The position numbers and the translations under genes were made by a program. Below are positions 2,786-40,130 of a stretch of DNA of 64,000 nucleotides, one piece after another (the stretch's first letter is position 1; the number at the start of each line of letters is the position of its first letter). Source of the stretch: Acidobacteriota bacterium (GTDB lineage Bacteria > Acidobacteriota > Vicinamibacteria > Vicinamibacterales > 2-12-FULL-66-21). Under the pieces are notes generated by a model that was not told the DNA's origin, made no database searches, and saw only the letters and a list, made by a program, of their open reading frames with translations. The stretch covers positions 14,199 to 78,198 of the forward strand of contig JBKPLP010000155.1 of NCBI GenBank assembly GCA_046731735.1, in the 5' to 3' direction.

Positions 2786-4348
2786 CTACGTCAATCTCGC
2801 AACGCGTCTGCGTTCGCGACCGGTCAGCCGCGCAATCTCCGCCGTCAGCACCGAGGGCTCGATGGGTTTCGGCACGTGGCGCTGCACCTCCGCAATCATC
2901 TGTCCCAGGCGGGTATCGCTGCGGGCAAATGTCGTCAACGCGAGTGCCGGGATGCGGCCGCCGCGCTCGGAGTCGAGCGAATGCACTTTTCCGACCAGCG
3001 CATAGGAATCGTGCGCCGGCGACGCCGCGTCGCTGATCAGCACGTCCGGACTCCAGCGCTCCAGCCATTCGAGCGCGTCGGCGACCGAGCCCACCGTCTG
3101 CACGTTGGCGCCGCGCTGCCACAGCACCGTCCGGACCAGCTCACGCCCGTCCAGATCTTGATCGAGGACCAGCACGCGCAACCCCTCGAGCGGCGCTTGC
3201 GACGACATGCGAACGGCGGGCGTCGCCTCCTCCGGGACCTTCGACGGCAGCAGTTCGGGTGACTGAAGCGGCAACCGCACGGTGAACATCGCCCCGGGAG
3301 CGTCCGTCCGGTTCTGCGCCGCGATTTCGCCGCCCTGCAGCGTCACCAGCTCGCGCACGAGGGCCAGCCCGACGCCGAGACCACCGAACGCGCGCGTGCT
3401 CGAGGAATCCTGCTGAGTGAAGCGATCGAATATGCGAGGCAGAAACGCGGGATCGATGCCGGAGCCGCTGTCGGCCACGGTGACTGTCGCCTCAGCGCCG
3501 TGCGACTCCACGACGAGCTGCACGGTACCGCCGCGCGGTGAGAATTTGATCCCGTTCGACAACAGATGCCAGACAACCTGGCGCAAGCGTGACGCGTCGC
3601 CGAGAACGACGACCGGCGTGGCCGGCAGCGAGACCTGGATATCGACCCCTTTGGCGCGCGCCGCAGATTCCACCGACAGAACGGCCTGCTGCGCCGCGTC
3701 ATTCAGCGTCGTCGGCTGACTCTCGAGGTGCAGTTCACCCGTCAGCGCTCGTGAGACGTCGAGCAGATCGCCCGTGAGCTGCGCCTGGAGCTTGGCGTTG
3801 CGCTCGATCGATTCGAGTCCGCGCGCCGACGTGTCCCCATCGAGCTTCCCGCTGCGCATCAAGTGCACCCATCCGAGCACCGCGTTGAGTGGCGTCCGCA
3901 GCTCGTGCGAGACGGTCGCCAGGAACTGATCTTTTGTCCGGTTCGCCGCTTCGCTCTCGCGCCGTGCGACCTGCGCGACGCGCGCCTGTTGATCGGATGT
4001 ACGTCGCGCGGCCCTCAGCTCGGAGATCACCGCAACGAGCATCAGCGCCTGAACGACGAACATCGCGAGATGGGTCGCCACCGAGACGTCGATCGGTGCG
4101 AGTCTCCCGGCTTCCTCCGCCCCCAGAACGGCCCCCAGGACCGTCGCCGCCAGCGCCGGCCCGGTGCCGGCGAACCAGGCGCTCGCCATCACCGCGATAC
4201 CCAGAAGAATGAACTTCGCCGGCTCATCAACGGGCCAGCCCGACAGGTGATCGACGACGAATACAACAGCGACAGCGGCGAGGGCGATCGTGAAGCGCAA
4301 AGGGGCAGGAAATGTCGGAAACGGATAAGCGTCGGGTGTGCCTCTCAT
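2786..4348 (-). CDS. hybrid sensor histidine kinase/response regulator
   Basis: N-terminal membrane segments, HisKA H-box (SHELRTPLNAV), HATPase_c (G-x-G motifs) and a C-terminal REC domain (VLVLDQD...DVLISD). Confidence 0.85.
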   Translation of the reverse strand: MRGTPDAYPFPTFPAPLRFTIALAAVAVVFVVDHLSGWPVDEPAKFILLGIAVMASAWFAGTGPALAATVLGAVLGAEEAGRLAPIDVSVATHLAMFVVQALMLVAVISELRAARRTSDQQARVAQVARRESEAANRTKDQFLATVSHELRTPLNAVLGWVHLMRSGKLDGDTSARGLESIERNAKLQAQLTGDLLDVSRALTGELHLESQPTTLNDAAQQAVLSVESAARAKGVDIQVSLPATPVVVLGDASRLRQVVWHLLSNGIKFSPRGGTVQLVVESHGAEATVTVADSGSGIDPAFLPRIFDRFTQQDSSSTRAFGGLGVGLALVRELVTLQGGEIAAQNRTDAPGAMFTVRLPLQSPELLPSKVPEEATPAVRMSSQAPLEGLRVLVLDQDLDGRELVRTVLWQRGANVQTVGSVADALEWLERWSPDVLISDAASPAHDSYALVGKVHSLDSERGGRIPALALTTFARSDTRLGQMIAEVQRHVPKPIEPSVLTAEIARLTGRERRRVARLT

Positions 4349-18578: not shown

Positions 18579-20024
18579 TTAATACTTCGACTGAGACGGG
18601 TCGATCCGGTCGATCCACTCCAGGATGCCACCCTTGAGATTGTGGATCCGCGTGAAGCCGCGCTCCTGAAGCAGCGCCACCGCCTTCGCGCTGCGCGCAC
18701 CCACTTTGCAGTGCACGACGAGATCGCGCGTCGCGTCGAGCTCCGCCGTGCGCCGGGGCAGCTCACCAAGGGGGATCAGCCTCGATCCCGCGATCCGGCA
18801 GATCTGAAACTCGTTCGGCTCCCGCACGTCGAGGAGGTCGAAGTCCTCGCCGCGGTCGATCTTCGCCTTCAAGTCTTCGACGGTGATCTCGGGAACGCCG
18901 CTGCCCGCCGGCTGCGCGTGTGCAGCGGGCACAATGCCGCAGAACTGATCGTAGTCGATGAGCGCCTTGATCGTCGGGTGATCGCCGCAGATCGGGCATT
19001 CGGGATCGCGTCGCAGCCGCAGCTCGCGGAACCGCATCTGCAGCGCGTCGTAGAGCAGCAGCCGTCCGACCAAGGGTTGGCCGGCGCCGAGGACCAACTT
19101 GATCGCTTCGGTGGCCTGAATGACGCCGATGACGCCCGGCAGCACGCCGAGCACCCCGCCTTCCGCGCAGCTCGGGACGAGACCCGGAGGAGGTGGTTCA
19201 GGATAGAGGCAGCGATAGCAGGGCCCGCCTTTCACCGCGAAGACGGACGCCTGGCCATCGAACCGGAAGATGCTGCCGTACGCGTTCGGCTTGCCCAGGA
19301 GCACGCACGCGTCGTTCACGAGGTAGCGCGTCTGGAAGTTGTCGGTTCCGTCGAGGATGACGTCGTAGTCCTTCAGCACGTCGAGCGCGTTCTTGGAGGT
19401 CAGCGTGACTTCGTGAAGGACGACGTTGACGCCCGCGTTCATCGCCATGATGCGCTCGCGCGCCGCCACGAGCTTCCGCCGTCCGACATCCGGGGTGCCG
19501 TAGATGATCTGCCGCTGCAAATTGCTCGAGTCGACGACATCGAAGTCCACAATCCCCAACGTGCCGATGCCGGCTGCCGCGAGATACATCGCCGCTGGCG
19601 CACCGAGCCCGCCGGCGCCTATGCACAGCACACTGGCCGCCTTCAGCTTGCGCTGTCCCTCGACGCCGACCTCCGGCATGATCAAATGACGGCTGTAGCG
19701 CTGCACTTCTTCACGCGTCAGTTCCGGAGCGGCGCGAACCGCCGCCCCCGACCCGCCCGCGACCGACGGCACGATGCTGATGGTGTCACCGGCCTTCAAG
19801 GTCGTCTTCTCGCGATCGAGGTGACGGATGTCTTCGTCGTTGACGTAGATGTTGACGAAGCTTCGCAGCCGTCCGTCCTCGGTGTAGAGGTGTCGGCGAA
19901 GATCGCCGTACTGGCCGATGAGCCCCTGCAGGGCATCGCCGACGGTTGTGCCTTCAACTTCGACGACGTCGCGCTTGCCGACAAACGGGCGGAGCGGCGT
20001 CGGGATCAGAATCCGATGGGCCAT
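18579..20024 (-). CDS. fusion protein: CysO/MoaD/ThiS-like sulfur-carrier domain (ends ...SVAGG) + MoeB/MoeZ-type E1 adenylyltransferase + C-terminal rhodanese
   Basis: Residues 1-91 resemble CysO-type carriers (FVNIYVNDEDIR...IVPSVAGG). These are followed by a RYSRHL / GAGGLG Rossmann fold, CxxC...CxxC, and a rhodanese domain with active-site CKVGARS. Confidence 0.85.
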   Translation of the reverse strand: MAHRILIPTPLRPFVGKRDVVEVEGTTVGDALQGLIGQYGDLRRHLYTEDGRLRSFVNIYVNDEDIRHLDREKTTLKAGDTISIVPSVAGGSGAAVRAAPELTREEVQRYSRHLIMPEVGVEGQRKLKAASVLCIGAGGLGAPAAMYLAAAGIGTLGIVDFDVVDSSNLQRQIIYGTPDVGRRKLVAARERIMAMNAGVNVVLHEVTLTSKNALDVLKDYDVILDGTDNFQTRYLVNDACVLLGKPNAYGSIFRFDGQASVFAVKGGPCYRCLYPEPPPPGLVPSCAEGGVLGVLPGVIGVIQATEAIKLVLGAGQPLVGRLLLYDALQMRFRELRLRRDPECPICGDHPTIKALIDYDQFCGIVPAAHAQPAGSGVPEITVEDLKAKIDRGEDFDLLDVREPNEFQICRIAGSRLIPLGELPRRTAELDATRDLVVHCKVGARSAKAVALLQERGFTRIHNLKGGILEWIDRIDPSQSKY

Positions 20025-20079
20025 GTCATGTCCTCAGTCGAGACGAAGAATCGCAGGCGATCGCCGGCGGGCACGGCGA

Positions 20080-21345
20080 TCAATGCCCCGCCGGCAGCAC
20101 CACCGCCGCTTCTCCCGACGAGCGAAGATACGCTTCGAAGTCCTGGAGCGATCGGCTGATTTGCACGGGCGGCGCGACGCGCGATCCGATGGTTTCCGCC
20201 GCTGTCTTGTACCCGTTGCCGGTAATGCAGATGACCACCGATTCGTCGGGCGCGATGGCGCCCGATTGCACCAGCTGAATGGTGCCGGCGAGCGTCGCGC
20301 CGCCGGCCGGCTCGGTGAAAATGCCTTCGGTTTCGGCGAGCAGCTCCATCGCCTGGAGAATCTGCTCGTCGGTCGACGCGACGCCGGTGCCACCGGTCGA
20401 CGTCACGGTCCGCACGACCTGGAACCCGTCCGCCGGGTTGCCGATCGCGATCGACTTCGCGATCGTCGACGGCTTGACCGGTTCGGGGTACTCGAGACCC
20501 TGCTCCAGCGCACGCACGACCGGCGCACAGCCCGCCGCCTGTGCCGCGTGGATCTTCGGCAGATCACCGGTGACCAGACCCACTTCGCGAAGCTCGCGGA
20601 ACGCTCTGAAGATTCGCGGCAGCAACGTACCACCGGCGACCGGAGACACCAGATGTTTCGGGAAACGCCACCCGAGCTGTTCGACGACTTCGAATCCGAG
20701 GGTTTTGGCCCCTTCCGCGTAGTAGCTGCGCAGATTGATGTTCGCGAAGCCCCATCCGAGCTTGTCGGCAACCTGCGTGCACAGCCGGTTGACGTCGTCG
20801 TAGTTGCCGCGAACCCCGATCACATGCGGCCGGAACACCGCCGACCCGAGCACCTTCCCGAGCTCGAGATCGTCCGGGATGAAGACGTAGCATTCCAGTC
20901 CGAGCCGCGCCGCGTGCGCCGACACGCTGTTCGCAAGATTTCCGGTGGACGCGCAGCCGAACACCGTGAAACCCAGTTCGACCGCGCGGGTTGCCGCGAT
21001 CGAGACCACTCGATCCTTGTACGAGAGCGTCGGATGATTGACCGAATCGTCCTTGATGAAGAGCTCCTGCAGGCCGAGCGTCCTGGCCAGGCGATCGGCC
21101 CGGACGAGCGGCGTACACCCCGAATGGAATCCGGTGCGCGGCTCACCGGTGATCGGCAGCAGCTCACGGAACCTCCACACGTTTCGAGGTCGCCGCTCCA
21201 CCACGTCGCGCGTGAGCGCGCCGCGTACGCCGTCGTAGTCGTAGACCACCTCGAGCGGACCCAGGCATTGATCGCAGACCCACAGCGCCTCGGCAGGAAA
21301 CTTCGCCCCGCACAGATGGCACTGGAGTCCCGTCATGAACGTCAT
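20080..21345 (-). CDS. threonine-synthase-family PLP enzyme (second ThrC paralog; candidate O-phosphohomoserine sulfhydrylase, MetM-like)
   Basis: N-terminal CxxC...CxxC ribbon and a PLP lysine context (PTLSYKDR). Sits between thrB and the sulfur-carrier/E1 gene. Confidence 0.8.
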   Translation of the reverse strand: MTFMTGLQCHLCGAKFPAEALWVCDQCLGPLEVVYDYDGVRGALTRDVVERRPRNVWRFRELLPITGEPRTGFHSGCTPLVRADRLARTLGLQELFIKDDSVNHPTLSYKDRVVSIAATRAVELGFTVFGCASTGNLANSVSAHAARLGLECYVFIPDDLELGKVLGSAVFRPHVIGVRGNYDDVNRLCTQVADKLGWGFANINLRSYYAEGAKTLGFEVVEQLGWRFPKHLVSPVAGGTLLPRIFRAFRELREVGLVTGDLPKIHAAQAAGCAPVVRALEQGLEYPEPVKPSTIAKSIAIGNPADGFQVVRTVTSTGGTGVASTDEQILQAMELLAETEGIFTEPAGGATLAGTIQLVQSGAIAPDESVVICITGNGYKTAAETIGSRVAPPVQISRSLQDFEAYLRSSGEAAVVLPAGH

Positions 21346-22289
21346 GCTTTACCTTTCCCTTTACCTTTCCGTCGCGCGACTGAGCTCGAGACCGCCCCGA
21401 GTCTGGTCGAAGCGCGATGCACCGGCACCGCCCTGATCGTGCAGGCGACCCGCTCCTGCCGGTACGCCTGTTTCAAAATCCGTTCTGCCGCGGCCGTCGG
21501 TCCGTTCGTGAACGCGGCGATGGATGGGCCGGCTCCGCTCAGGCAGAACCCGATCACATCAGGATGCCGCACCGAGAGCAGCCGGCGCAACCCCGGCACC
21601 AGCCGCTCCCGATACGGCTGGTGAACGCGATCGCGGAGCGCCTCCCGAAAATCGTCCGCATCAGCCGACTGGAGCGCGCCGAGGAGGAGTGCCAGCCGCT
21701 GCAGGTTGAACACCGCGTCGCCGACCGGCAGCCGACTCGGGATCGCCCGCCGCGAAAGCGGGGTCGGCAGCTCCAGTGCTGGTGTCGCGACGACGATGCG
21801 CCATGCGCGCGGCCACGGCCACCGGGCAACCCGGATCGTTCCGTCTGCCATGGCGCAGCAGCTCGTCACACCGCCAAACAAGGAAGGCGCGACGTTGTCC
21901 GGGTGCCCTTCGATCTTGGACGCTGCCGAGAGAATTTCGGCCCCGGGCCGCCTGCCGTCCACGAGTTCACGCAGCCGCAGGCCGGCCACGGTGGCGGCGG
22001 CACTGCTTCCCAGCCCGGAGCGCAGTGGAATCTCGCTATGCACTTCGACCTCGAGCGACGGAGCCCGCTTGACACGGCCGAGCGCGCGAAATCCGTCCGC
22101 GATCCGATTCGGCCCCCCGATGGGTCCGTCCACGAAATGCCACGTCAGCCTGCCGCGGCCGTCGTGCTCGATATTCCTGACGCGTAGCCGCAGATACAAC
22201 CCCACTGCAAGGCCCAGCGTGTCGAACCCGGGGCCGAGATTCGCGATGGATCCGGGCACGACAATCTCGCGTGGCCTCACGCGCTGCAT
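21342..22289 (-). CDS. thrB: homoserine kinase
   Basis: Trimmed to MQRVRPREIVVPGSIANLGPGFDTLG. GHMP kinase motif PLRSGLGSSAA. The start overlaps the sulfite reductase stop, and the stop overlaps the next ATG. Confidence 0.85.
   Translation of the reverse strand: MQRVRPREIVVPGSIANLGPGFDTLGLAVGLYLRLRVRNIEHDGRGRLTWHFVDGPIGGPNRIADGFRALGRVKRAPSLEVEVHSEIPLRSGLGSSAAATVAGLRLRELVDGRRPGAEILSAASKIEGHPDNVAPSLFGGVTSCCAMADGTIRVARWPWPRAWRIVVATPALELPTPLSRRAIPSRLPVGDAVFNLQRLALLLGALQSADADDFREALRDRVHQPYRERLVPGLRRLLSVRHPDVIGFCLSGAGPSIAAFTNGPTAAAERILKQAYRQERVACTIRAVPVHRASTRLGAVSSSVARRKGKGKGKA
21347..21370. repeat. CTTTACCTTTCC x2 (TACCTTT family)
   Basis: Lies inside the last 10 codons of the thrB ORF, where it is translated as KGKGKGKA, directly upstream of the next gene's ATG. 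Confidence 0.8.
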
Positions 22290-24127
22290 TCGCCGTCCAT
22301 GACCTCCGGATTGAACGCGTGATCTTCGCCTGGATCGATGAAGTCCTGCGGCCGGACGTCGTCGGCCGTCAGCTGCTCGAGATCCGCCACCGCGGCTCGC
22401 GCCCGCGCGGTGTCGACCCGGTGGAAGAACGTGCCGGCACTCTCGCCGTGTGCCCGTTCCACTTCGTACAGTTTCAATAAACGCTCGACCGCTTCCGGAA
22501 TGCGACGCGCGGGAATCTTCGCGGTCAGGCGGCCGAACTGTGCGCCGTCCTGTCCCTGTCCACCGCCAAGCATCAGAAAGTACTGCGGTACCGCGCGGTC
22601 GCCGAGCTTTCTCACGCTTCCCTGGAATCCGATGCTCGCCACGTGATGCTGCCCGCAGCCGTTCGGGCAGCCACTGATCTTGATCCGCGCGTCCGACGCA
22701 ATCCGCAGCAGTGCGGGCGATTGCTGCTCCAGGTTCTCTTCGATCAGTTTCGCGAGGCCTCGCGACTGCGTGACCGCGAGACGGCACGACTCGGCGCCGG
22801 GACAGCTGGTGACGTCGGTGATCGTGCCCGCGCCGGCGCGCGCGAGACCCGCGGCGGCAAGCCGTCGATACAGCCCAGGCACCTGCCCGCTGCGTACCCA
22901 CCGCAGCAGCAGGTTCTGATCCACTGTGGTGCGCACCAGGCCGTCCGCGTACGCTTTCGACAGCGCGGCGATCGCGCGCATCTGACCCGACGTGATGTCG
23001 CCGAGCTCCAGCGAAACGGTCACCTGGGAGTACTCGCTCTGTTTCTGAGGCCGCAGATTCGTCCGCAGCCACTCGCTGCGCTCACGGCCAGGGCCGCCAT
23101 CTCCTGTCTCCCGCAGCGGGACAATCCCCGGCCCCTTCACCGCGGTCGCACCGACGAGCGCGGCAATGTCGGCGATCGCCGGCGGCTCCGCGCGCTCCGA
23201 CTCAGGCGCCTGTTCAACCGGCGGATTCTCCGGATCGAAGGGCAGGCGTGCGGCGGCGGATGCGCGAAGATCCTCGAGTTCGCGCTGAAACTCGGCGTGC
23301 CACGCCTCCCAACCCATCTTCTTCACGAGGAATTTCAGCCGGTTCCGCTGCTTATGTTCGTAATCGCCATGCCGTTGGAAGACGCGCAGCACCGCTTCCG
23401 CCACCATCAGGATCTCGGATGCCGGCAGGAACTCGTACAGCGATGCGCCCGAACGGCACATGATCGACGTGCCGCCGGCGACCTGCACCCTGAAACCGCG
23501 AGCGCCGGAGCCATCCGGCGCCAGCATCGCGCGATACCCCAGGTCGTTGATTGAGGTTGCCGTATGGTCCTCGGACGCGCATCCCTCGAACGCGATCTTG
23601 AACTTGCGCGGAAGCGCGGAACTGAGCGGATGGCGCAGCAGATAGCGCGTCATCGCCTCCGCATACGGCGTGACGTCGAAGATCTCGTCGCGCGCGACTC
23701 CGGCGTGCGGGCACGCGGTGATATTGCGCACGGAGTTGCCGCACGCTTCACGCGTCGTCAATCCGCTGTCCGCGAGACGCCGCAGGGCGGGCTCTGCGTC
23801 GTGCAACTTCACGAAGTGAAACTGCACGTTCTGCCTGGTCGAAATGTGGCCGAACCCGCGTGAGTAGCGGTCGGCGACGTCGGCGAGCGCCTCCAGCTGC
23901 GCCGCATCCAGAATGCCTTGCGGGATCTTCACGCGCAGCATCTGCGCGTCCGCGTCCTGCCGTTGCCCGTACGTGCCTCGCAGCAAACGGAACCGACGCC
24001 ACTCCTCGGGTGATATGTCGCCGCGCTCGAACTGATCGAGTGTGCGCACGAACTCGTCGATGTCGTTGGTATCGGCAAAGGACAGCCGGGTGCGGCCGTA
24101 AGTGCGAGGATCGTCCAAGACTGCCAT
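22277..24127 (-). CDS. ferredoxin-dependent sulfite reductase (NirA/Sir family, siroheme-[4Fe-4S])
   Basis: Trimmed to MAVLDDPRTYGRT. Two nitrite/sulfite reductase repeats and cluster cysteines (TSCPGAESC, SGCPNGC). Adjacent to siroheme synthesis genes. Confidence 0.85.
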   Translation of the reverse strand: MAVLDDPRTYGRTRLSFADTNDIDEFVRTLDQFERGDISPEEWRRFRLLRGTYGQRQDADAQMLRVKIPQGILDAAQLEALADVADRYSRGFGHISTRQNVQFHFVKLHDAEPALRRLADSGLTTREACGNSVRNITACPHAGVARDEIFDVTPYAEAMTRYLLRHPLSSALPRKFKIAFEGCASEDHTATSINDLGYRAMLAPDGSGARGFRVQVAGGTSIMCRSGASLYEFLPASEILMVAEAVLRVFQRHGDYEHKQRNRLKFLVKKMGWEAWHAEFQRELEDLRASAAARLPFDPENPPVEQAPESERAEPPAIADIAALVGATAVKGPGIVPLRETGDGGPGRERSEWLRTNLRPQKQSEYSQVTVSLELGDITSGQMRAIAALSKAYADGLVRTTVDQNLLLRWVRSGQVPGLYRRLAAAGLARAGAGTITDVTSCPGAESCRLAVTQSRGLAKLIEENLEQQSPALLRIASDARIKISGCPNGCGQHHVASIGFQGSVRKLGDRAVPQYFLMLGGGQGQDGAQFGRLTAKIPARRIPEAVERLLKLYEVERAHGESAGTFFHRVDTARARAAVADLEQLTADDVRPQDFIDPGEDHAFNPEVMDGECSA

Positions 24128-24132
24128 ATGAG

Positions 24133-24909
24133 TTATATCCCGCTCAGACTTCGGCGCTCGGCTTCGGCGTGCCGCACCGCGTCCTGCGTTGAAAGAAGGC
24201 CAGCCAGCGCCGCGACCGCCCCGACGACGATGACGCCCGGCAGGCCGCTGTCCTCGACGGCGTCCCGCACGGCGAGTAAATCGAGCGTGCCGTGCCACTC
24301 CTCCGCCCCGGGGTGCGAGGCGCCGAACAGCACGGCCGCCGGAGTCTGCGCAGCCCAGCCCGATGCGCGCAGCTGGTCGACGATCGCCGCACGATTCGCG
24401 ATGCCCATGAGTACGACGATCGTCGCGCTGCCCGGCGCCAGCGACCGCAGCACCGGCCCATACGCCGACTCGGCATGGCCCGAGAGGACGATGAACGCAG
24501 ATGCCAGACCGCGATGCGTGACGGGAATCCCCGCAAGCAGCGGCGCCGCGATGGCGCTGCTGATTCCCGGAACGACTTCACAGGGGATGCCTGCGGCAGC
24601 GAGGGCCAGCGCCTCTTCGCCGCCGCGGCCGAACACGAACGGGTCGCCGCACTTCAGGCGGACGACCTTGTGGCCGCGCCGCGCCTCGCGAACCATCAGC
24701 CGGTTGATCGCGTCCTGCCGGATCGCCGGGCGCCCCGCGCGCTTACCGACGAAGAAACGCCGCGCGCGCGCGGCATGGCGCAACGCGGCAGTATCCACGA
24801 GCGCATCGTAGAGCACCAGATCCGCTTCCTCGAGACGCCGCACGGCCTTGACGGTGAGCAGCTCCGGATCGCCCGGGCCGGCGCCGATGAGGGAGACAGA
24901 ACCAGTCAT
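24133..24909 (-). CDS. cobA: uroporphyrinogen-III C-methyltransferase
   Basis: 258 aa with LIGAGPGDPELLT and GDPFVFGRGGEE motifs. Confidence 0.9.
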   Translation of the reverse strand: MTGSVSLIGAGPGDPELLTVKAVRRLEEADLVLYDALVDTAALRHAARARRFFVGKRAGRPAIRQDAINRLMVREARRGHKVVRLKCGDPFVFGRGGEEALALAAAGIPCEVVPGISSAIAAPLLAGIPVTHRGLASAFIVLSGHAESAYGPVLRSLAPGSATIVVLMGIANRAAIVDQLRASGWAAQTPAAVLFGASHPGAEEWHGTLDLLAVRDAVEDSGLPGVIVVGAVAALAGLLSTQDAVRHAEAERRSLSGI

Positions 24910-25697
24910 TTTTTACTCTGCGCTGGGGCCCCACCCCCAGCGCCTGCCAGCACTCGCTCATCGCTCGTGCCGCTGTTTCGATCGACATCCCGCTTAGTCA
25001 ACATCGGGGCCCCACCCTCAACGCCTGCCAGCACTCGCTCATCGCTCGTGCCGCTGGTTCGATCGACATCCCGCTTAGTCAACATCGGGGCCCCACCCTC
25101 AACGCCTGCCAGCACTCGCTCATCGCTCGTGCCGCTGGTTCGATCGACATCCCGCTTAGTCGACATCGATCTCGATGTGTAGAGCGCATTCAGGGCTTCG
25201 AGCAGCTCCGGGCGGCGTGCCTCCATCGGCACTTCCCGCTCGCGCCATGAGCGGCGCAGCTCGTGTGCGCGCTCGCTCCAACTCTCGAGATCACTCGGGA
25301 GCAGGGCATCCAGCGCTTCGCGAAGCAGTCCCGCGAGCGCGGGCGCCGCTCCGTCGGTCGAGATCCCCAGCGTCACCCCGCCCCGACGGACGACGCCGCC
25401 GAGATACACGGTGGCGTTCGCGGGATCGTCGACGGCGTTCACGAAAACCTGCCGGCGCTCCGCTGCCTCCGCCACACGGCGATTGACCTCGGGGGGCGCG
25501 GCCGCAACAACGAACCAGGCCTCGTCGACATCCGACGGCTCGAAACCCCGGCGCTCGATTCGTACGCCGGCGGCCTCGACCTCTTGGCACACGTCGGGCG
25601 CGACGACCGTCACGTCAGCGCCAGCGGCCTTCAGTGCGGCCAGCTTCGACGCGGCGACAGGACCGGCGCCGACGACGAGCACCCGGCGGCGGTGCAA
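24906..25697 (-). CDS. sirC: precorrin-2 dehydrogenase / sirohydrochlorin ferrochelatase (SirC/CysG-N type) with repeat-derived C-terminal tail
   Basis: VLVVGAGPVAASKL Rossmann fold and a VNAVDDP motif. TTG 25697 or GTG 25682 start. The last ~85 aa are encoded by the 81-bp tandem repeat. Confidence 0.75.
   Translation of the reverse strand: MHRRRVLVVGAGPVAASKLAALKAAGADVTVVAPDVCQEVEAAGVRIERRGFEPSDVDEAWFVVAAAPPEVNRRVAEAAERRQVFVNAVDDPANATVYLGGVVRRGGVTLGISTDGAAPALAGLLREALDALLPSDLESWSERAHELRRSWREREVPMEARRPELLEALNALYTSRSMSTKRDVDRTSGTSDERVLAGVEGGAPMLTKRDVDRTSGTSDERVLAGVEGGAPMLTKRDVDRNSGTSDERVLAGAGGGAPAQSKK
24925..25167. repeat. 81-bp tandem repeat x3
   Basis: Copies start at 24925, 25006 and 25087 and differ by only a few substitutions. 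The unit is ~GGGGCCCCACCCTCAACGCCTGCCAGCACTCGCTCATCGCTCGTGCCGCTGGTTCGATCGACATCCCGCTTAGTCAACATC. Confidence 0.95.
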
Positions 25698-25743
25698 CTT
25701 CAGGAACGCTGGGAACAGGGCGATGACGGCAACTCCTTTCCAT

Positions 25744-25786
25744 GAAAAACAAAAAGCCCGGGAGGTGTCTGGCCTCCCGGGCTTCG
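25744..25786 (-). terminator. intrinsic terminator / attenuator hairpin upstream of sirC
   Basis: Minus strand reads AAGCCCGGGAGG-ccagaca-CCTCCCGGGCTT followed by TTTGTTTTT. The 12-bp GC stem lies 20 nt after the poly-Cys leader stop. Confidence 0.8.
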
Positions 25787-25809: not shown

Positions 25810-25908
25810 TTAGAACATCACGCCTGGACCGAAGGCAGGGAAGCCCCGAATGCTGCACATACAGCAGCAGCAGCAACAATTACAGGCGCAGGGGTTCCCG
25901 TAGAGCAT
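25810..25908 (-). CDS. candidate polycysteine leader peptide (32 aa)
   Basis: ATG CTC TAC GGG AAC CCC TGC GCC TGT AAT TGT TGC TGC TGC TGC TGT ATG TGC AGC ATT CGG GGC TTC CCT GCC TTC GGT CCA GGC GTG ATG TTC TAA = MLYGNPCACNCCCCCCMCSIRGFPAFGPGVMF. Confidence 0.6.
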   Translation of the reverse strand: MLYGNPCACNCCCCCCMCSIRGFPAFGPGVMF

Positions 25909-25915
25909 TTTGCTG

Positions 25916-25945
25916 TTTATACCCCACCTCAGGCCGGAATCGCAA
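25916..25945 (-). promoter_or_regulatory. candidate promoter TTGCGA-N18-TATAAA for the poly-Cys leader (near-leaderless)
   Basis: Minus strand reads TTGCGAttccggcctgaggtggggTATAAAcagcaaaATG. The -35 element lies in the last codons of thrC. Confidence 0.35.
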
Positions 25946-27254
25946 GATCGAGGTGCCTCCGCACCTGGTCATAATCGTTGGGCAGCTCGATGGGGCGGTT
26001 CGCCCGCCGCGACACGATCCCCTCCAGGGTGCCCGCGTGGTAGCCCGCCTTGAAATCCGTGAATTTCAGGCCGCTCGCGGTCGAAATCACCACCACCCGG
26101 TCGCTTGCCTTGATCTCGCCTCGTCCTGCGAGCTTGATCAGTGCGGCCAGCGCAACGCCGGTGTGCGGACACGCGAACATGCCGGTCTTGTCGGCATGAG
26201 CGACCGCGTCCGCAAGCTCCTGCTCGTTGGCCTGTTCGACTGTCCCGCCGGAGCGCTTCAGGGCGGCAATCGCCTTCTGCACGGAAACCGGGTTCCCGAT
26301 TTGAATCGCCGACGCGAGCGTCGGACGCGCGGTGACCGGCTTGAATTGCCAGCGATTCAGCGACGCCAGGTAAAGCGGGTTGGCCGCTTCGGCCTGCGCC
26401 GCGATCAGTCGCGGCACGCGCGCAACCAGGCCAAGGTCCCGCATCATCTCAAAGCCGGCGGCGAACGCGCTGATGTTTCCCAGGTTGCCCGCCGGGACGA
26501 TGACGACGTCCGGCACCTGCCAGTCGAACTGCTGGGCAATCTCGATGGCGACCGTCTTCTGCCCTTCGAGCCGCAGACTGTTCATCGAGTTCGCCAGGTA
26601 CAGCCCTTCGTCGTCGGCCAGCCGCTGGATGATCGCCATGCACCCGTCAAAATCCGTGTCGAGTGCGAAGACGACCGCTCCGTTGGCCAGGGGCTGGACC
26701 AGTTGCGCGACGGTCACTTTCCCCCGCGGCAGCACGACAATGGCGGGAATCTCCGCGGCGGCGGCGTACGCGGCAAGCGATGCCGACGTATCGCCCGTGG
26801 ACGCGCAGCCGACTGCGCGGATCTGCTTCCCCTGGGCCATCATCTGGCGGACCATGGACACGAGCACCGTCATCCCGAGGTCCTTGAACGATCCCGTGTG
26901 CGAGTTGCCACACAACTTGACCCAGACGTCCTTCAAGCCGATCGATCGGCCGAACGCGTCGGCGAGAAACAGATTCGTGCCCCCCTCATCCATCGAGACT
27001 ACGTTCTCATCTTCGATTTCCGGGCAGACCCACTCCTTCTTGCCCCAGACGCTCGATCCGTACGGCCATGCGGTGCGCTTGTACCGTTCATCGAAGAGAC
27101 GCATCCACGCCGCCGCGCTCCGGTCGCGGAGCGCGTCCAGGTCGTGAACGACCTCGAGCAGACCGCCGCAGGTCGGACAGCGGTAGATGACCGTGTCCAG
27201 CGAATACGACCCGGGACAGCCGGCGACGCAGCGGAACTCGGCGCGATAGCTCAC
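25929..27254 (-). CDS. thrC: threonine synthase
   Basis: 441 aa. N-terminal Zn-ribbon-like CxxC...CxxC and a PLP lysine context (HTGSFKDLG). Confidence 0.9.
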
Positions 27255-28579
27255 GCCGCGCTCCCCGGGGTGGCCGATGACAGCACGGGAAGCACGACTG
27301 GCGGCTCACCGTGAAAATCGCACTGGGACATTTCCTGGATCGCCCGATCGATCGCGGACGCCGGGGCCGGATCGAGGCTGACCACGAAGGGCCGGCGGCC
27401 GGCGGGAAACCCGGGCTCCTGAAGAATTGCGTCGATGTTGATGTCGTGGCGCGCGAAGACGGTCGCGAGCGCTGCGATGATTCCCGGTCGGTCCGCGACG
27501 GTGAAGCGCACGTAGAACGCGCTGGTGAAATCCGGCGACACGTCTGCCCGGTTCGCAGCCGCACGGGAGCTGAAGGGCACGGCTTCGCGCGCGATCGCGA
27601 GCAGGTCCGACATGACAGCCACGGCCGTCGGCTCTCCGCCCGCGCCAAGGCCCCCAAACGTCGTTTCGCCACCATACTGGCCGCGCAGGGTCACCAGGTT
27701 CTCGCTGCCGCGCACGCGCGCGAGCGGCGAATCGAGCGGCACGAGCGCCGGCCCGACCGCCGCGGTCAACACACGGGGATCCGCTGTCCGTTCGGCCCAC
27801 GCGACCTGCCGGATGGTGCAACCCATCTGCTGCGCGTAGACGAAGTCGACCGCGTCGATGACGTCGATGCGCCGCGACTGGATTGCACCCGCGGGCACGT
27901 GCGTCCGCAGCGCGATGTGAGCCAGAATCGCGAGCTTCGCCTGGGCGTCGAACCCTTCGATGTCCTGAGACGGATCGGCTTCGGCAAGCCCCAGCGCCTG
28001 GGCCTCCGCGAGCGCTTCCCAGAATGGCACGCGCTGCCGCTCCATGCGGCTCAGGATGTAGTTGCACGTGCCGTTGAGAATCCCGGCGACGCGGGTCAGC
28101 TTGTCCCCGGCGAGCCCGTGCTCAATCGCGCGGATCACCGGGACGCCGCCAGCGACCGCAGCCTCGAAGCGCACGTGCCGTTTCGATCGTGCCGCCTCTT
28201 CCAGTAACTCAGGACCGGCGTGAGCTATCACCTGTTTGTTGGCGGTGACGACCGACTTCCCTGCTCTCAGCGCCCGTCGGATCCACTCCTCGGCCGGCAT
28301 CCGTCCACCGATCAGCTCGACGAGGACGTCCACGTCGTCGTTCAGCACGTCGTCGATCCTGTCGGTCCAGCGGATGGAGTCGTCGAGCCAGTCGACGCGC
28401 TTGCGTTCGATACCGCGATTCAGAATCGCCACGAGCTGAAGTTCGGGCGGCGCGAGATCCTGCAGCAGCCGGGCCACGGATCGACCGACGGTACCGAACC
28501 CGGCGATCGCCACGCGGGTCCTCTGCGTAACCGGCTTCGTCGCGGCGGACGGGACTGTGGCTGCGGCGGGCGCGCTCAT
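27251..28579 (-). CDS. hom: homoserine dehydrogenase (with C-terminal ACT domain)
   Basis: GFGTVG NAD-binding motif, catalytic domain and ACT-like tail. 4-bp overlaps with both neighbours. Confidence 0.9.
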
Positions 28580-29964
28580 GCCTGCACCATAGGCGTCTGC
28601 GCGGCGTCGCGGCGGCGCGCACCTCCGAAGAACCAGTCGTGCAGCCGCGACACGGCAGGTATCGCCTGAGTCGCGTCGACGACGAACGACAGCGTCCGCT
28701 TACCGTCCGGTTGGGCAACGAGATGAACCTGCAAATCGCGCAGGGCGCCGGCCACATCCGCTGCCAGATGCCGATTCGCACTCAACCCTTCGCCCACCAC
28801 CGTCACCGTCGCAAGATCGTCGGTCACCCGGACGTCGGCAAATTTTCCAAGCGATCGGCGTAGTAGATCAAGCGTCGGCGCTGCCTGAACCGTGAACACG
28901 AGCCGGTTTCCGCACAGATCAGCGAGGACGGCCTCGACGTCCGCGAGTTCGAGCTCACCAAACACCCGCGATACGAACTCGTCGACGTCGGCGCGTTCGT
29001 GGGCGAGGACTTCGAACAGGATCGCGCCGTCGCGGCAGGCGAGACCGGCCACCGGCCGCGCGTCCTCCGCGGTTCGCGCGGCGCTGACGACGGTTCCGGA
29101 CACGTGCGGCCGTTGCGAGTTGCGGACGACAACGGGAATCGCGCAATCGACGGCTGGCGCGATCGTACCGGGGTGCAGCACCTTCGCGCCAAACGACGCG
29201 AGGTCGTGTGCTTCACCGTACGAAAGATGCGGTACGAGACGCGCATGGGGTACCAGGCGCGGGTCGGCGGTCATGATGCCGTCGACGTCGGTCCAGATCT
29301 GAATCTCGTCCGCGCCGAGGCAGGCACCGAACACCGCGGCGGAGCAGTCCGACCCGCCGCGCCCGAGCGTCGTCGTCACGCCCTTCGCATCGGATCCGAT
29401 GAAGCCGCCGAGGACCACGATATCGCCGCGATCGAGCTCGGGGCGCACGAGACGGACACAGGCTTCGCGTGTCGCGATGAGATCGGGAGCGGCGCCGCCG
29501 TGGTGGCTGTTCGTGCGCAGGACGTCCCGGGCATCGAGCCACGTGGCCGGCACGCCGCCATCGCGCAGCACTGCCGCCAGCAGCCGGCTGCTCCAGAGCT
29601 CTCCCGCTGCCGCCACCTCATCGACCGAGCGCGCGGACAGGCGCCCCGGCGCCGCTTCGAGGGTCGCGGCGACCTGCGCGGCAATCGCATAGAACTCGTG
29701 CTGGAGTGCCACCCGTGCCGTGCGTTCGCGAATCATCTCGGCCGCCGCGAGGTGCCGGCGCAACAGCAGGTCGAGGTTGCGCGGCGGCGGATTCCCCGGA
29801 ATCGTCGCGCCCGCAGCCGCCACGTTCAGCAGCGCGTCGGTCACACCGGCGAGCGCCGACACCACCACTAGGCGCGACCGTCGTTCGGCCGCGATGATCC
29901 CGGCCACCCGCCGAATCGATTCCACCTCGCCGACTGAGGTGCCGCCGAATTTCAGGACTACCAC
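28576..29964 (-). CDS. ask: aspartate kinase
   Basis: GTG start giving MVVLKFGGTSV, with RBS GAGGAG upstream. Amino-acid kinase domain plus ACT domains. Confidence 0.9.
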   Translation of the reverse strand: MVVLKFGGTSVGEVESIRRVAGIIAAERRSRLVVVSALAGVTDALLNVAAAGATIPGNPPPRNLDLLLRRHLAAAEMIRERTARVALQHEFYAIAAQVAATLEAAPGRLSARSVDEVAAAGELWSSRLLAAVLRDGGVPATWLDARDVLRTNSHHGGAAPDLIATREACVRLVRPELDRGDIVVLGGFIGSDAKGVTTTLGRGGSDCSAAVFGACLGADEIQIWTDVDGIMTADPRLVPHARLVPHLSYGEAHDLASFGAKVLHPGTIAPAVDCAIPVVVRNSQRPHVSGTVVSAARTAEDARPVAGLACRDGAILFEVLAHERADVDEFVSRVFGELELADVEAVLADLCGNRLVFTVQAAPTLDLLRRSLGKFADVRVTDDLATVTVVGEGLSANRHLAADVAGALRDLQVHLVAQPDGKRTLSFVVDATQAIPAVSRLHDWFFGGARRRDAAQTPMVQA

Positions 29965-30025: not shown

Positions 30026-30058
30026 AAAAAAAAACCCGCCGGCTGAGAGCCGGCGGGT
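30026..30058 (-). terminator. intrinsic terminator inside the ask 5' leader (attenuator)
   Basis: Minus strand reads ACCCGCCGGC-tctca-GCCGGCGGGT followed by T9, 61 nt upstream of the ask GTG. Confidence 0.75.
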
Positions 30059-30092
30059 TGGGGTGCGCAATGCCTTTAATTGGGCTGTTTCG

Positions 30093-30194
30093 TCAGGAAG
30101 CGCGTGCGCAAAGACCGCCGGCGTGGCGAATTCGAATGGTTCGAATTCGCATACACGTGCAACACATCGCCGTAGCCTTGGACTGGAACCGCAT
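30093..30194 (-). CDS. candidate leader ORF (33 aa, or 24 aa from an internal ATG)
   Basis: MRFQSKATAMCCTCMRIRTIRIRHAGGLCARAS. It contains the segment GCCGGCGGT, which mimics the terminator 3' arm. Weak translation signals. Confidence 0.3.
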   Translation of the reverse strand: MRFQSKATAMCCTCMRIRTIRIRHAGGLCARAS

Positions 30195-30209
30195 CGCTTC
30201 TGGCTGTCG

Positions 30210-30239
30210 AGTATAGGCGGCACCCCTGGACAGCGTCAA
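30210..30239 (-). promoter_or_regulatory. candidate sigma-70 promoter of the ask-hom-thrC leader (TTGACG-N18-TATACT)
   Basis: Minus strand reads cTTGACGctgtccaggggtgccgccTATACTcgacagcc. Confidence 0.45.
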
Positions 30240-38062: not shown

Positions 38063-38427
38063 TTCCGGGCGAGCTGTTCCTGCGCGACGAGCCCGTCGAA
38101 CTGAATGCCGGACGCGAGCCGATCCGCATCCGCGTCGACAACGCCGGCGATCGGCCGATCCAGATCGGATCGCACACGCACTTTTTCGAAGTCAACAAAC
38201 ATCTTCGGTTCGATCGTGGTCGCGCGTACGGCTGTCATCTGAACATCCCGGCCGGGACCGCGCTTCGGTTCGAACCCGGCGAAGGACGGGAGATCGATCT
38301 CGTGCCGTTTGGCGGGACGCGCCGCGTGTTCGGCATGAGCGGACTGGTCAATGGCTCGCTCGACGATCAGCGCGATCAGGCAGTTAGCCGTGCGAGCGAG
38401 CGCGGCTTCACCGGGGATCGACGGTGA
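38059..38427 (+). CDS. ureB: urease subunit beta
   Basis: MIPGELF...[16 protein letters not shown]. Confidence 0.93.
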
Positions 38428-40130
38428 AGATTCCGCGGCGGACGTACGTCGATCTTTACGGCCCCACCACCGGAGATCGCGTTCGCCTCGGGGACACGTC
38501 TCTCGTGCTCGAGATCGACCGCGACCATGCGCGGTATGGTGACGAGGTCGTGTTCGGTGGCGGCAAGGTCATCCGCGATGGACAAGGGCAATCCCAGGCA
38601 ACCCGCGCGGCGGGCGCGCCGGACCTCGTGATCACGAACGCCATCGTCGTGGATCACTGGGGCGTCGTAAAGGCCGACGTGGGCGTCCGCGACGGCCGCA
38701 TCAGTGCGATCGGAAAGGCCGGCAATCCCGACATTCAGGACGGGGTCACGCCCGGTCTCGAGATCGGTCCGTCGACTGAAATCCTCGCGGGCGAGCATCG
38801 AATCCTGACCGCGGGCGGAATCGATTCCCACATCCACTTCATCAGCCCGCAGCAGGCGTGGGAAGCGCTCTACAGCGGCATCACCACCATGATCGGCGGC
38901 GGCACCGGGCCGGCGGAAGGCACGCGGGCGACGACCTGCACGCCCGGTGAGTGGAACATTCGACGGATGCTGGAAGCAGCCGAAGGACTGCCGCTGAATT
39001 TCGGGTTCCTGGGAAAAGGCAACGCGTCCCTGCCGGACCCGCTGGTCGAGCAGATCGTCGCCGGAGCGATTGGCCTGAAGCTGCACGAAGATTGGGGCAC
39101 GACGCCGCAGGCAATCGACACCGCGCTCGGCGTCGCGGACGAGTACGACGTGCAGGTCGCGATTCATACCGACACGCTGAACGAATCAGGATTCGTCGAG
39201 GACACGCTCGCCGCCTTCAAGGGCCGGACGATTCACACCTACCACAGCGAAGGTGCCGGCGGCGGGCACGCCCCCGACATCATGAAGGTCTGCGGTCAGC
39301 CAAACGTGCTGCCGTCGAGCACGAACCCGACGATGCCGTACACGGTGAACACGCTCGACGAGCACCTGGACATGCTGATGGTCTGCCATCACCTCAACCC
39401 GCAGGTACCCGAAGACGTCGCGTTCGCCGAGTCGCGAATACGGCCGGAGACGATGGCCGCGGAGGACGTCCTGCACGATCTCGGCGCGATCAGCATGATG
39501 TCATCCGACTCGCAGGCGATGGGCCGCGTCGGCGAAGTCATCACACGCACGTGGCAGACGGCGCACGTGATGAAAGAGACGCGAGGCGCGCTCCGCGGCG
39601 ATCGGGCGGAGAACGACAACCTGCGCATACGCCGTTACGTCGCGAAGTACACGATCAATCCCGCACGCACGCACGGGATCGCCGATTACGTCGGGTCGAT
39701 CGAGGTCGGCAAGTGGGCTGACCTCGTGTTATGGTCGCCGGCCTTTTTCGGCGTCAAACCCGACCTCATCGTCAAGGGCGGGATGATCGTCGCGGCACTG
39801 ATGGGAGACCCCAACGCGTCCATCCCGACGCCTGAGCCGGTGCGGTATCGGCCGATGTTCGGCGCGCTGGGCAAAGCGCCCGACGGGCTCGCGGCGACGT
39901 TCGTCTCGCGCGCCGCGCTCGACTCGAGGTCGCTGCCGGCATCGCTCCGGCGGACCCTGCTGCCGGTGCGGAACACGCGGACGCTCGGCAAACGGGATAT
40001 GGCCATGAACGATGCGCTGCCGTCGATCGAGATCGATGCGGAGCGCTATACCGTCACCATCGATGGAGAGAGAATAGAGCCGAAGGCCGCGGCGCGGCTG
40101 CCGCTGGCACAGCGGTATTTTTTGTTCTGA
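38424..40130 (+). CDS. ureC: urease subunit alpha
   Basis: 568 aa with [16 protein letters not shown] and MVCHHL motifs. Confidence 0.95.

Follow-up and report, generated by a model that had tools for sequence, protein, structure and literature searches.

Organization of the locus

The DNA analysed here is a stretch of 64,000 nucleotides from an Acidobacteriota bacterium (contig JBKPLP010000155.1 of assembly GCA_046731735.1, positions 14,199 to 78,198 of the forward strand), referred to below as the window. We focused on a minus-strand operon in which genes for siroheme synthesis, a siroheme reductase, homoserine kinase and a second ThrC-family enzyme precede a sulfur carrier fused to an E1 enzyme. 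The window has a G+C content of about 65%, and the nearest named relatives of its proteins belong to Vicinamibacterales or Acidobacteriota.

Nine minus-strand genes lie head to tail: ask, hom, thrC, sirC, cobA, a reductase gene, thrB, a second thrC-like gene and the fusion gene. The products of the two thrC-like genes are called ThrC-1 and ThrC-2, respectively. The first three genes, ask (28576-29964), hom (27251-28579) and thrC (25929-27254), are joined by 4-bp overlaps; ask and hom, identified with Pfam and NCBIfam, would supply homoserine from upstream. A gap of 231 nt, as listed, separates thrC from sirC. The ask-hom-thrC unit is directly followed by a cysteine-rich leader open reading frame (ORF), and a terminator scan found no terminator between the two.

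The sirC gene (24906-25727, listed as 24906-25697) encodes a precorrin-2 dehydrogenase/ferrochelatase of the CysG N-terminal type (Pfam NAD_binding_7; TIGR01470 score of 124 for a cutoff of 62). It overlaps by 4 bp with cobA (24133-24909), whose product is the uroporphyrinogen-III C-methyltransferase of siroheme synthesis (TIGR01469, 263 bits, cutoff 185). A 5-nt gap leads to the gene for a ferredoxin-type siroheme/[4Fe-4S] reductase of the NirA family (22277-24127), with two NIR_SIR and two NIR_SIR_ferr domains in Pfam. Its overlap with thrB amounts to 13 bp if thrB starts at ATG 22289 and to 4 bp if it starts at GTG 22280. The thrB gene (21342-22289), coding for homoserine kinase (TIGR00191, 200 bits, cutoff 168; matches to homoserine kinases in the PDB), shares 4 bp of its stop region with the start of the ThrC-2 gene (20080-21345). 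After a further 55 nt, the fusion gene begins with a CysO/MetO-type sulfur-carrier domain (residues 1-91, 19752-20024) that ends in VAGG and continues in frame into a MoeZ/MoeB-type E1 adenylyltransferase with a C-terminal rhodanese (residues ~92-481, 18579-19751). The 3′ end of the operon faces a convergent citrate-synthase-like gene.

The six closely coupled genes from sirC to the fusion, described in an earlier sequence-only reading of this DNA, were all recovered from ORFs, Pfam and NCBIfam matches and gene junctions. That reading had also named the reductase a ferredoxin-type sulfite reductase. Pfam bears out a siroheme reductase of the NirA family whose closest matches among solved structures are ferredoxin-nitrite reductases of plants and Mycobacterium tuberculosis NirA; sulfite, rather than nitrite, is the substrate that we infer from the cysteine leader and the sulfur-carrier context. 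All pyridoxal 5′-phosphate (PLP) enzymes of the operon belong to the ThrC family, and neither MetY nor MetX was found among the scanned ORFs of the window. We consider it likely that the locus is a sulfur-assimilation and methionine module, which would lead from sulfite to homocysteine via O-phosphohomoserine under cysteine-dependent attenuation.

ThrC-1 aligned with the Arabidopsis threonine synthase (PDB 1e5x) over residues 6-431, with 546 bits and E = 3.4e-163. The match to this chloroplast threonine synthase 1 spans the full mature length, N-terminal domain included. In plant threonine synthase, the N-terminal domain takes part in activation by S-adenosylmethionine (SAM). Judged from this end-to-end match, ThrC-1 is a plant-type threonine synthase, and it would be a second consumer of O-phosphohomoserine besides ThrC-2. 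The assignment of a canonical thrC to the upstream ask-hom-thrC unit was therefore correct. ThrC-1 also carries a CxxC...CxxC motif, which the plant enzyme lacks.

ThrC-2 belongs to a clade separate from threonine synthases

A preprint describes MetM as a homolog of ThrC that is frequently annotated in error as threonine synthase and that acts together with MetO as carrier, Mec as protease and MoeZ as E1 enzyme (bioRxiv 10.1101/2024.10.14.618325). A second account places a SAM riboswitch upstream of Streptomyces albulus metM and metO adjacent to it, and reports homologs in cyanobacteria (PMC12172450). Both texts trace S. albulus MetM and MetO to Hasebe et al. 2024 (Appl Environ Microbiol 90:e01247-24). 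The MetM/MetO route that the sequence-only reading named for Streptomyces agrees with these texts (PMC12172450; bioRxiv 10.1101/2024.10.14.618325).

ThrC-2 is a fold-type II PLP enzyme of the ThrC family (Pfam PALP, E = 1.7e-63) and is 28% identical to ThrC-1. Solved bacterial threonine synthases gave 164-186 bits with ThrC-2 and 179-201 bits with ThrC-1. Relatives of ThrC-2 were drawn from 1.84 billion cluster representatives and a tree was built, in which ThrC-2 fell within a large group marked by KDRVV behind the PLP lysine, a place where every solved threonine synthase shows KDRGM. A bootstrapped neighbour-joining tree was then computed with clade members, four bacterial threonine synthases of solved structure and the plant-type enzyme. 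ThrC-2 and all carrier- or riboswitch-linked genes formed one clade on a long stem (bootstrap 91/100), containing an acidobacterial subclade (94/100) with ThrC-2 and a gene (locus L016) that has both a SAM riboswitch and a ThiS gene. Neither the plant type nor any of the four bacterial threonine synthases fell within this clade; they formed separate groups. Within it, ThrC-2 is grouped with genes in the published metM layout (L008 from Nonomuraea and L016 from Acidobacteria), the comparison being with these genes rather than with S. albulus MetM itself. In pairwise comparison, the identity of ThrC-2 is 46% with the Nonomuraea gene product and 53% with a Microcystis homolog.

In a sequence alignment, 14 columns each have one fixed state throughout 40 clade members and a different one throughout 12 threonine synthases. 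With Thermus thermophilus numbering, confirmed by the PLP lysine at K61, these columns include the changes G64V, M65V, T88L, S155N, N157R and R160Y, which hold without exception in the 40 clade members; at N188, the clade has Gly or Ser. T88, S155, R160 and N188 are positions that we take to form the phosphate pocket of threonine synthase. ThrC-2 has L137, N204, Y209 and G238 there, and SYKDRVV rather than SFKDRGM, so that neither the pocket residues nor the motif of threonine synthases are kept. Structures of the Thermus enzyme, attributed to Omi (2003) and Murakawa (2011), reportedly show Thr88, Asn154, Ser155, Arg160 and Asn188 holding the substrate phosphate, and the released phosphate is said to steer water to the beta carbon. 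The remodelled pocket fits a predicted substitution at the gamma carbon by enzymes of the ThrC-2 clade. The separate clade, the low identity to ThrC-1 and the altered pocket together uphold the view that the second paralog is unlikely to be the housekeeping threonine synthase.

Genomic context of the ThrC-2 clade

A scan of one genome per species, in which two peptide patterns matched at least 600 stretches, gave 80 loci (labels beginning with L) from more than 10 phyla with proteins 49-73% identical to ThrC-2. They come from Acidobacteriota, Cyanobacteria (including Microcystis), Planctomycetota, Verrucomicrobiota, Nitrospirota, Nitrospinota, Actinomycetota, metagenome-assembled genomes (MAGs) of Deltaproteobacteria and Thermodesulfobacteriota, and others. 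The ORFs of each locus were probed with the window proteins, and the 75 loci with at least 600 nt downstream were taken as informative. A ThiS-like ORF lies within 1 kb downstream of the ThrC-2-type gene in 58 of these 75 loci, and anywhere in the locus in 63; most of these ORFs end with PA[IV]AGG and a stop codon. Within 5 kb, an E1 was found in 18 loci, a JAB protease in 9 and a sulfite reductase in 7.

A SAM riboswitch is located directly upstream in 14 clade loci of several phyla. The hosts are Micromonospora, Actinoplanes, Nonomuraea, Acidobacteriota, Verrucomicrobiota, Planctomycetota, Kiritimatiellae and one unclassified MAG (among them L006-L009, L012, L016-L018, L021, L029, L036, L040 and L068). 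Among 20 short loci tested, six have a riboswitch directly upstream (L016, L021, L029, L036, L040, L068). Riboswitch-bearing proteins include close relatives of ThrC-2 (L009 and L012, 72% and 70% identical) and more remote ones (L017 and L018, 56-58%). In Nonomuraea gerenzanensis, whose chromosome was reached by tblastn of a plasmid collection, the riboswitch is followed by the ThrC-like gene and by a 91-residue ThiS protein ending in AGG; in Micromonospora and Actinoplanes it is followed by the MetM-like gene.

A bona fide-type ThrC shares the locus with the ThrC-2 type in L011, L014, L015, L035, L059 and L064, showing that the two ThrC types are not redundant. In three of these loci (L011, L014 and L015), thrB is followed by genes of both the ThrC-2 type and the plant type, next to each other. 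The thrB gene overlaps the MetM-like gene in the window and in the Acidobacteriota loci L010, L011 and L013-L015. The full operon is conserved in L001, L002, L089-L092 and L094. The packaging of the whole chain in one operon had been considered unusual. The unit of thrB, sulfite reductase and siroheme genes is real; it is however conserved in a clade of soil Vicinamibacterales, and parts of it recur in other phyla. Overall, the clade (91/100), the carrier in 58 of 75 loci, the 14 SAM riboswitches and the pocket changes lend comparative support to the earlier suggestion that ThrC-2 would make homocysteine, which we regard as likely.

ThrC-2 could instead be a second genuine threonine synthase, with the carrier feeding a CysM-type cysteine synthase or a cofactor or tRNA thiolation encoded elsewhere. 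Several observations point in this direction and weigh against a role in homocysteine synthesis. TIGR00260, the curated thrC model of NCBIfam, scores ThrC-2 at 251 for a cutoff of 167, PRK08197 ('threonine synthase') scores it at 299 versus 303, and its homologs are named threonine synthase in every source. Two relatives that are 71-74% identical to ThrC-2 (P0097 and P0110) take the place of thrC behind hom, as parts of asd-ask-hom or hom-ask units, and their loci have no carrier and no riboswitch hit. The leader would sense Cys, not Met, and the carrier is as close to CysO as to MetM-linked carriers. The Microcystis homolog was reportedly not fully MetM-like in vivo (PMC12172450).

We nevertheless regard a second threonine synthase as very unlikely. 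TIGR00260 places both ThrC-1 and ThrC-2 above its cutoff, and thus does not separate the two. A plant-type threonine synthase is already encoded 4.6 kb upstream, the clade stands apart from all solved threonine synthases, its phosphate-pocket residues are replaced throughout, and enzyme and carrier genes are paired across phyla. SAM riboswitches precede 14 clade members, including relatives 70-72% identical to ThrC-2. In L009, the riboswitch governs hom together with the ThrC-2-type gene, and a position after hom is therefore equally natural for a methionine enzyme.

The two contigs with 71-74% identical relatives after hom had also raised ThrC-2 as a candidate for the housekeeping threonine synthase. 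This candidate was set aside in view of the riboswitches before the 70-72% identical relatives, the adjoining ThrC types in L011, L014 and L015, and the plant-type ThrC-1.

The carrier-E1 fusion and the JAB protease

Pfam delineates three domains in the 481-residue fusion: ThiS (5-91), ThiF (110-344) and Rhodanese (381-471). This matches the description of a carrier fused to a MoeB/MoeZ-type E1 with rhodanese. The best solved match of the carrier domain is M. tuberculosis CysO (3dwg_C, E = 5.6e-15), and the comparison of residues 1-91 with CysO, which the sequence-only reading had suggested, gave an alignment from end to end up to the Gly-Gly. The domain scores 100 bits with a hidden Markov model (HMM) of MetM-linked carriers. 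It is 41% identical to CysO and 33-48% identical to MetM-linked carriers, ranges that overlap, so that the sequence does not assign it to MetO or CysO. The E1 part matches Uba4, MoeB and ThiF in the PDB and has its rhodanese cysteine in HCKVGARS. It falls below the cutoffs of the curated models NF005902 for MoeZ (531 versus 647) and NF005646 for MoeB (554 versus 633).

The architecture of the fusion raises two difficulties for the proposed pathway. The Gly-Gly is internal, at residues 90-91 of 481, and is followed by SGAAVRAAPELT and the E1; no internal start codon occurs in the fusion before residue 116. Consequently, no free carboxylate is available for adenylation by the E1 until the chain is cut. 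Moreover, a JAB protease gene is missing from the locus, and tblastn and HMM searches found none in the 64-kb window.

Four relatives (L001, L002, L003 and L094) have a Prok-JAB gene of 141-155 codons between the ThrC-2 gene and the fusion. In the JAB-less operons (the window, L089, L090, L091 and L092/L093), a spacer of 25-61 nt with the last bases of the JAB gene is found at this place. Compared with L002, whose flanking DNA is 84-85% identical, the gene is cleanly absent from the window. JAB-less and JAB-plus operons are interleaved by similarity. The ratio of nonsynonymous to synonymous substitution rates (dN/dS) of the carrier domain is 0.04-0.14 among JAB-less pairs and does not differ in JAB-plus pairs, which indicates that the carrier is still in use. 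The Gly-Gly and the linker are unchanged in JAB-less operons.

One reading of the protease loss is that the module is decaying: an uncleavable fusion would leave the carrier arm dead, and only sulfite reduction would matter. The clean absence relative to L002 and the lack of a JAB gene in the window are compatible with it, as is the presence of JAB in all six other loci in which the carrier continues into a long C-terminal extension and the contig reaches far enough (L024, L042, L051, L083, L027, L026). This decay is nonetheless hardly credible: all ORFs are intact, at least five distinct relatives, one of them in 71 contig-collection blocks, have JAB-less operons interleaved with JAB-plus ones, and neither the dN/dS of the carrier nor the Gly-Gly and linker differ between them. 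A JAB protease encoded elsewhere in the genome is the simplest answer to how the fusion would be cleaved in JAB-less genomes. Because at least five related operons lost JAB yet keep the carrier under strong purifying selection, the fusion might alternatively be a self-contained polyprotein resembling a ubiquitin precursor that dispenses with a dedicated JAB, by means of another protease or a mode new for ThiS/MoaD proteins. We find this doubtful.

The carrier could also be dispensable for homocysteine formation. ThrC-2 would then make homocysteine from O-phosphohomoserine with free sulfide obtained straight from the neighbouring reductase, and the fused carrier-E1 would serve another thiolation or buffer sulfide. 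In L009-L015, the closest acidobacterial relatives, no carrier gene lies within range, which counts against a general need for the carrier and makes direct use of sulfide possible; five of these loci (L009, L010, L011, L012 and L015) link the MetM-like gene to sirC-cobA-sir/thrB. The JAB gene is missing in the window and in four other operons, and the Microcystis study, citing Hasebe 2024, mimicked MetM activity with Na2S (PMC12172450). In contrast, 58 of 75 loci, spread across phyla, have a carrier gene behind that of the enzyme, the fusion lies downstream of ThrC-2 in every full operon of the clade, and the carrier remains constrained even where JAB is absent. We therefore hold free sulfide as the physiological donor to be unlikely, and favor transfer from the carrier.

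Other carrier arrangements were noted in the clade. In an Actinomycetota MAG (L027, 8359-12299), genes for SirC, Sir, JAB and the MetM-like protein accompany a ThiS-E1 fusion without rhodanese (AGGSLSEDEVERYSRQ), which may represent an independent origin of the carrier-E1 fusion. ThiS-NIL fusions with an internal Gly-Gly lie downstream of the MetM-like gene in L024 (11158-11787), L042 (11279-11800), L051 (3206-3853) and L083 (3008-3532). Their hosts are Deltaproteobacteria, Syntrophaceae and Thermodesulfobacteriota MAGs and one unclassified MAG, and JAB and E1 genes are present in each locus. Two tandem ThiS-like carrier genes follow the MetM-like gene in a Verrucomicrobia locus (L067, 7994-8596). 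In L001 (11682-13367), the fusion ORF is 80 codons longer and contains low-complexity repeats (PENPRTREPENPRTREP).

A cysteine leader upstream of sirC

The ORF listing gave a minus-strand leader of 32 codons (MLYGNPCACNCCCCCCMCSIRGFPAFGPGVMF, 25810-25908) with nine Cys codons and one internal Met. A terminator scan placed an intrinsic terminator (25753-25785) behind it. Read in the direction of transcription from 25785 to 25753, it has a 13-bp stem with nine GC pairs followed by a U-run (-26.3 kcal/mol). The 5′ arm of the terminator can pair alternatively with 25845-25829, inside the leader ORF, to form an antiterminator. When the terminator 3′ arm is omitted, the nascent RNA folds into this antiterminator (-33 kcal/mol), and the same pairing is found in L002. 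As read from the DNA, the anatomy of a leader-peptide attenuator is thus present: a short Cys-rich ORF, an intrinsic terminator and an overlapping antiterminator. This fits the cysteine-attenuated operon that had been postulated. One result speaks against it: when the full leader is folded thermodynamically, the terminator is always retained and the antiterminator never appears. Antitermination therefore rests on a kinetic, co-transcriptional argument.

The attenuator is conserved in five related operons. Poly-Cys leaders of the same kind precede sirC in L002, L091, L092 and L094; the one before sirC of L009 differs (MCTCCCCG...). On the L009 contig, a poly-Cys leader with terminator (319-475) and a SAM riboswitch (4041-4154) occur in series. 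There, the leader and a similar terminator stand before sirC-cobA-sir only, and the riboswitch before hom and the MetM-like gene. In the window lineage, a Cys-controlled module for sulfite reduction seems to have been joined with a methionine module, the cysteine signal now governing both. Rfam gave no SAM riboswitch in the window and no known RNA element in the operon. In the literature searched for cysteine, no classical transcription attenuator based on cysteine codons turned up.

A possible second attenuator lies upstream of ask (30033-30239, minus strand). It comprises a promoter-like site (30239-30210), a 33-codon ORF from ATG 30194 (MRFQSKATAMCCTCMRIRTIRIRHAGGLCARAS, with Thr, Met, Cys and Ile codons) and a strong terminator (30059-30033) between this ORF and ask (29964). 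A small ORF containing CCCC is found in L001 at the position matching this ask leader.

Proposed pathway

In the proposed pathway, SirC and CobA would supply siroheme to the NirA-type reductase, which would reduce sulfite to sulfide. ThrB would convert homoserine, provided by ask and hom, to O-phosphohomoserine, and ThrC-2 would then exchange the phosphate on the gamma carbon for sulfur to yield homocysteine. Sulfur would most likely be donated by the CysO/MetO-type carrier, through a thiocarboxylate at its C-terminus; this carrier forms residues 1-91 of the fusion protein, ahead of the E1. The chain would be cut behind Gly90-Gly91, after which the E1 domain could adenylate the carrier, and sulfide or a rhodanese persulfide could turn the adenylated carrier into the thiocarboxylate.

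Transcription from the ask promoter would run into the leader attenuator with its nine Cys codons. When Cys-tRNA is scarce, a ribosome would stall in the Cys run and leave the antiterminator segment free, so that the antiterminator could form and the six genes would be transcribed. When cysteine is plentiful, the ribosome would reach the leader stop codon and cover this segment, and the terminator would form. Together, the plant-type ThrC-1 and the MetM-like ThrC-2 are proposed to create a plant-like branch point at O-phosphohomoserine, leading to threonine or methionine, respectively. If this is true, the Vicinamibacterales, which are abundant in soil, make methionine via a plant-type O-phosphohomoserine branch point that is tied to sulfite reduction.

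Comparison with known systems

Like MetM/MetO of S. albulus, in the two accounts of that system, the window module combines a ThrC-homologous enzyme, a ThiS/CysO-type carrier, O-phosphohomoserine as putative substrate and a MoeZ-type E1. The Nonomuraea layout of SAM riboswitch, enzyme and carrier equals that of S. albulus metM-metO as reported there. In contrast, the window carrier is fused to the N-terminus of the E1, whereas the S. albulus carrier is described as a free protein of 90 residues. The window operon further differs from these accounts in that it includes thrB, sulfite reductase and siroheme genes, and has a poly-Cys leader attenuator in place of the SAM riboswitch. Finally, the locus lacks the Mec/JAB gene of the published MetM pathway, again a point against a strict equivalence.

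The CysO/CysM/MoeZ/Mec system of M. tuberculosis shares with the window the best carrier match (CysO, 41%), a MoeZ-like E1 with rhodanese and, as predicted for the window, a phosphorylated amino acid as acceptor. The window partner is, however, ThrC-like and not CysM, and the kinase is a homoserine kinase. Also unlike the mycobacterial cysteine pathway, the SAM control of relatives of the window system points to methionine.

Wolinella succinogenes reportedly has a cluster of HcyS, HcyF, HcyD, sulfite reductase and MetY, in work attributed to Krishnamoorthy and Begley (2011). Neighbourhoods of ThiS, JAB, E1 and sulfite reductase genes have been described in a comparative study (Iyer et al. 2006, PMC1779556). 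The window resembles both in its sulfite reductase, ubiquitin-like carrier, E1 and putative homocysteine-making PLP enzyme, and in a carrier precursor that would need trimming. It differs from Wolinella in the PLP enzyme, a ThrC-family protein of fold type II predicted to act on O-phosphohomoserine with ThrB, as compared to MetY acting on O-acetylhomoserine. The C-terminal extension of the carrier is a whole E1 in the window and a single residue in Wolinella. The E1 enzymes of the sulfur-assimilation clusters are always without rhodanese (Iyer et al., PMC1779556), unlike that of the window.

Polycysteine leader ORFs of mycobacteria are leaderless and control translation through sequestration of the ribosome-binding site (Canestrari et al., bioRxiv 10.1101/834739). 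Like the putative cysteine sensor of the window, they are short upstream ORFs with a Cys run that sense cysteine supply on behalf of sulfur-metabolism genes. The window differs in combining a leader peptide with an antiterminator and an intrinsic terminator, inside a longer operon. Its poly-Cys leader and terminator are a candidate cysteine attenuator of the classical type, open to test.

The MetM/MetO pathway has been known since 2024 and the ThiS-JAB-E1-sulfite reductase neighbourhoods since 2006 (PMC1779556). New are the association of thrB, sulfite reductase and siroheme genes in one operon, the carrier-E1 fusion, the Cys-leader control in place of a SAM riboswitch, and the repeated loss of the protease gene. 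A carrier made within its own E1, with or without a JAB neighbour, is a natural experiment on the processing of bacterial ubiquitin-like precursors. The data also bear on annotation. The evidence places the ThrC-2 clade in methionine synthesis, although its members are named 'threonine synthase' everywhere, and the family is common in soil metagenomes. Marks that set the clade apart from true threonine synthases are P[TS]xS[YF]KDRVV, STGNL and N-x-N-[LM]-R-x-Y-Y.

Further observations

The listed TTG start of sirC (25697) removes ten conserved residues, IALFPAFLKL. The codon ATC 25727, 8 nt past AAGGAG, aligns with the ATG of sirC in L001 and L009, and an ATC stands at the same place in L002 and L091. 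No in-frame ATG, GTG or TTG occurs upstream of ATC 25727. The gene thus probably starts at this non-canonical ATC, the listed TTG being a truncation. Inside the 3′ end of sirC, an 81-bp tandem repeat (24925-25168, 3.0 copies, 97% matches) contributes three copies of TKRDVDRTSGTSDERVLAGVEGGAPML to SirC. This repeat is absent at the equivalent place of L002, and no further copy exists in the window or in any fetched locus.

Elsewhere in the window, Rfam reported a match to the Helicobacter 5′ ureB small RNA (sRNA) with 92.6 bits (38570-38865, minus strand), antisense within the urease alpha-subunit gene (38388-40130, plus strand). This match most likely reflects conserved urease coding sequence and not an sRNA. 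Finally, the reductase gene calls on record for L001 (7283-9126) and L002 (7876-9126) are split or shortened, which suggests frameshifts or miscalls in those assemblies.

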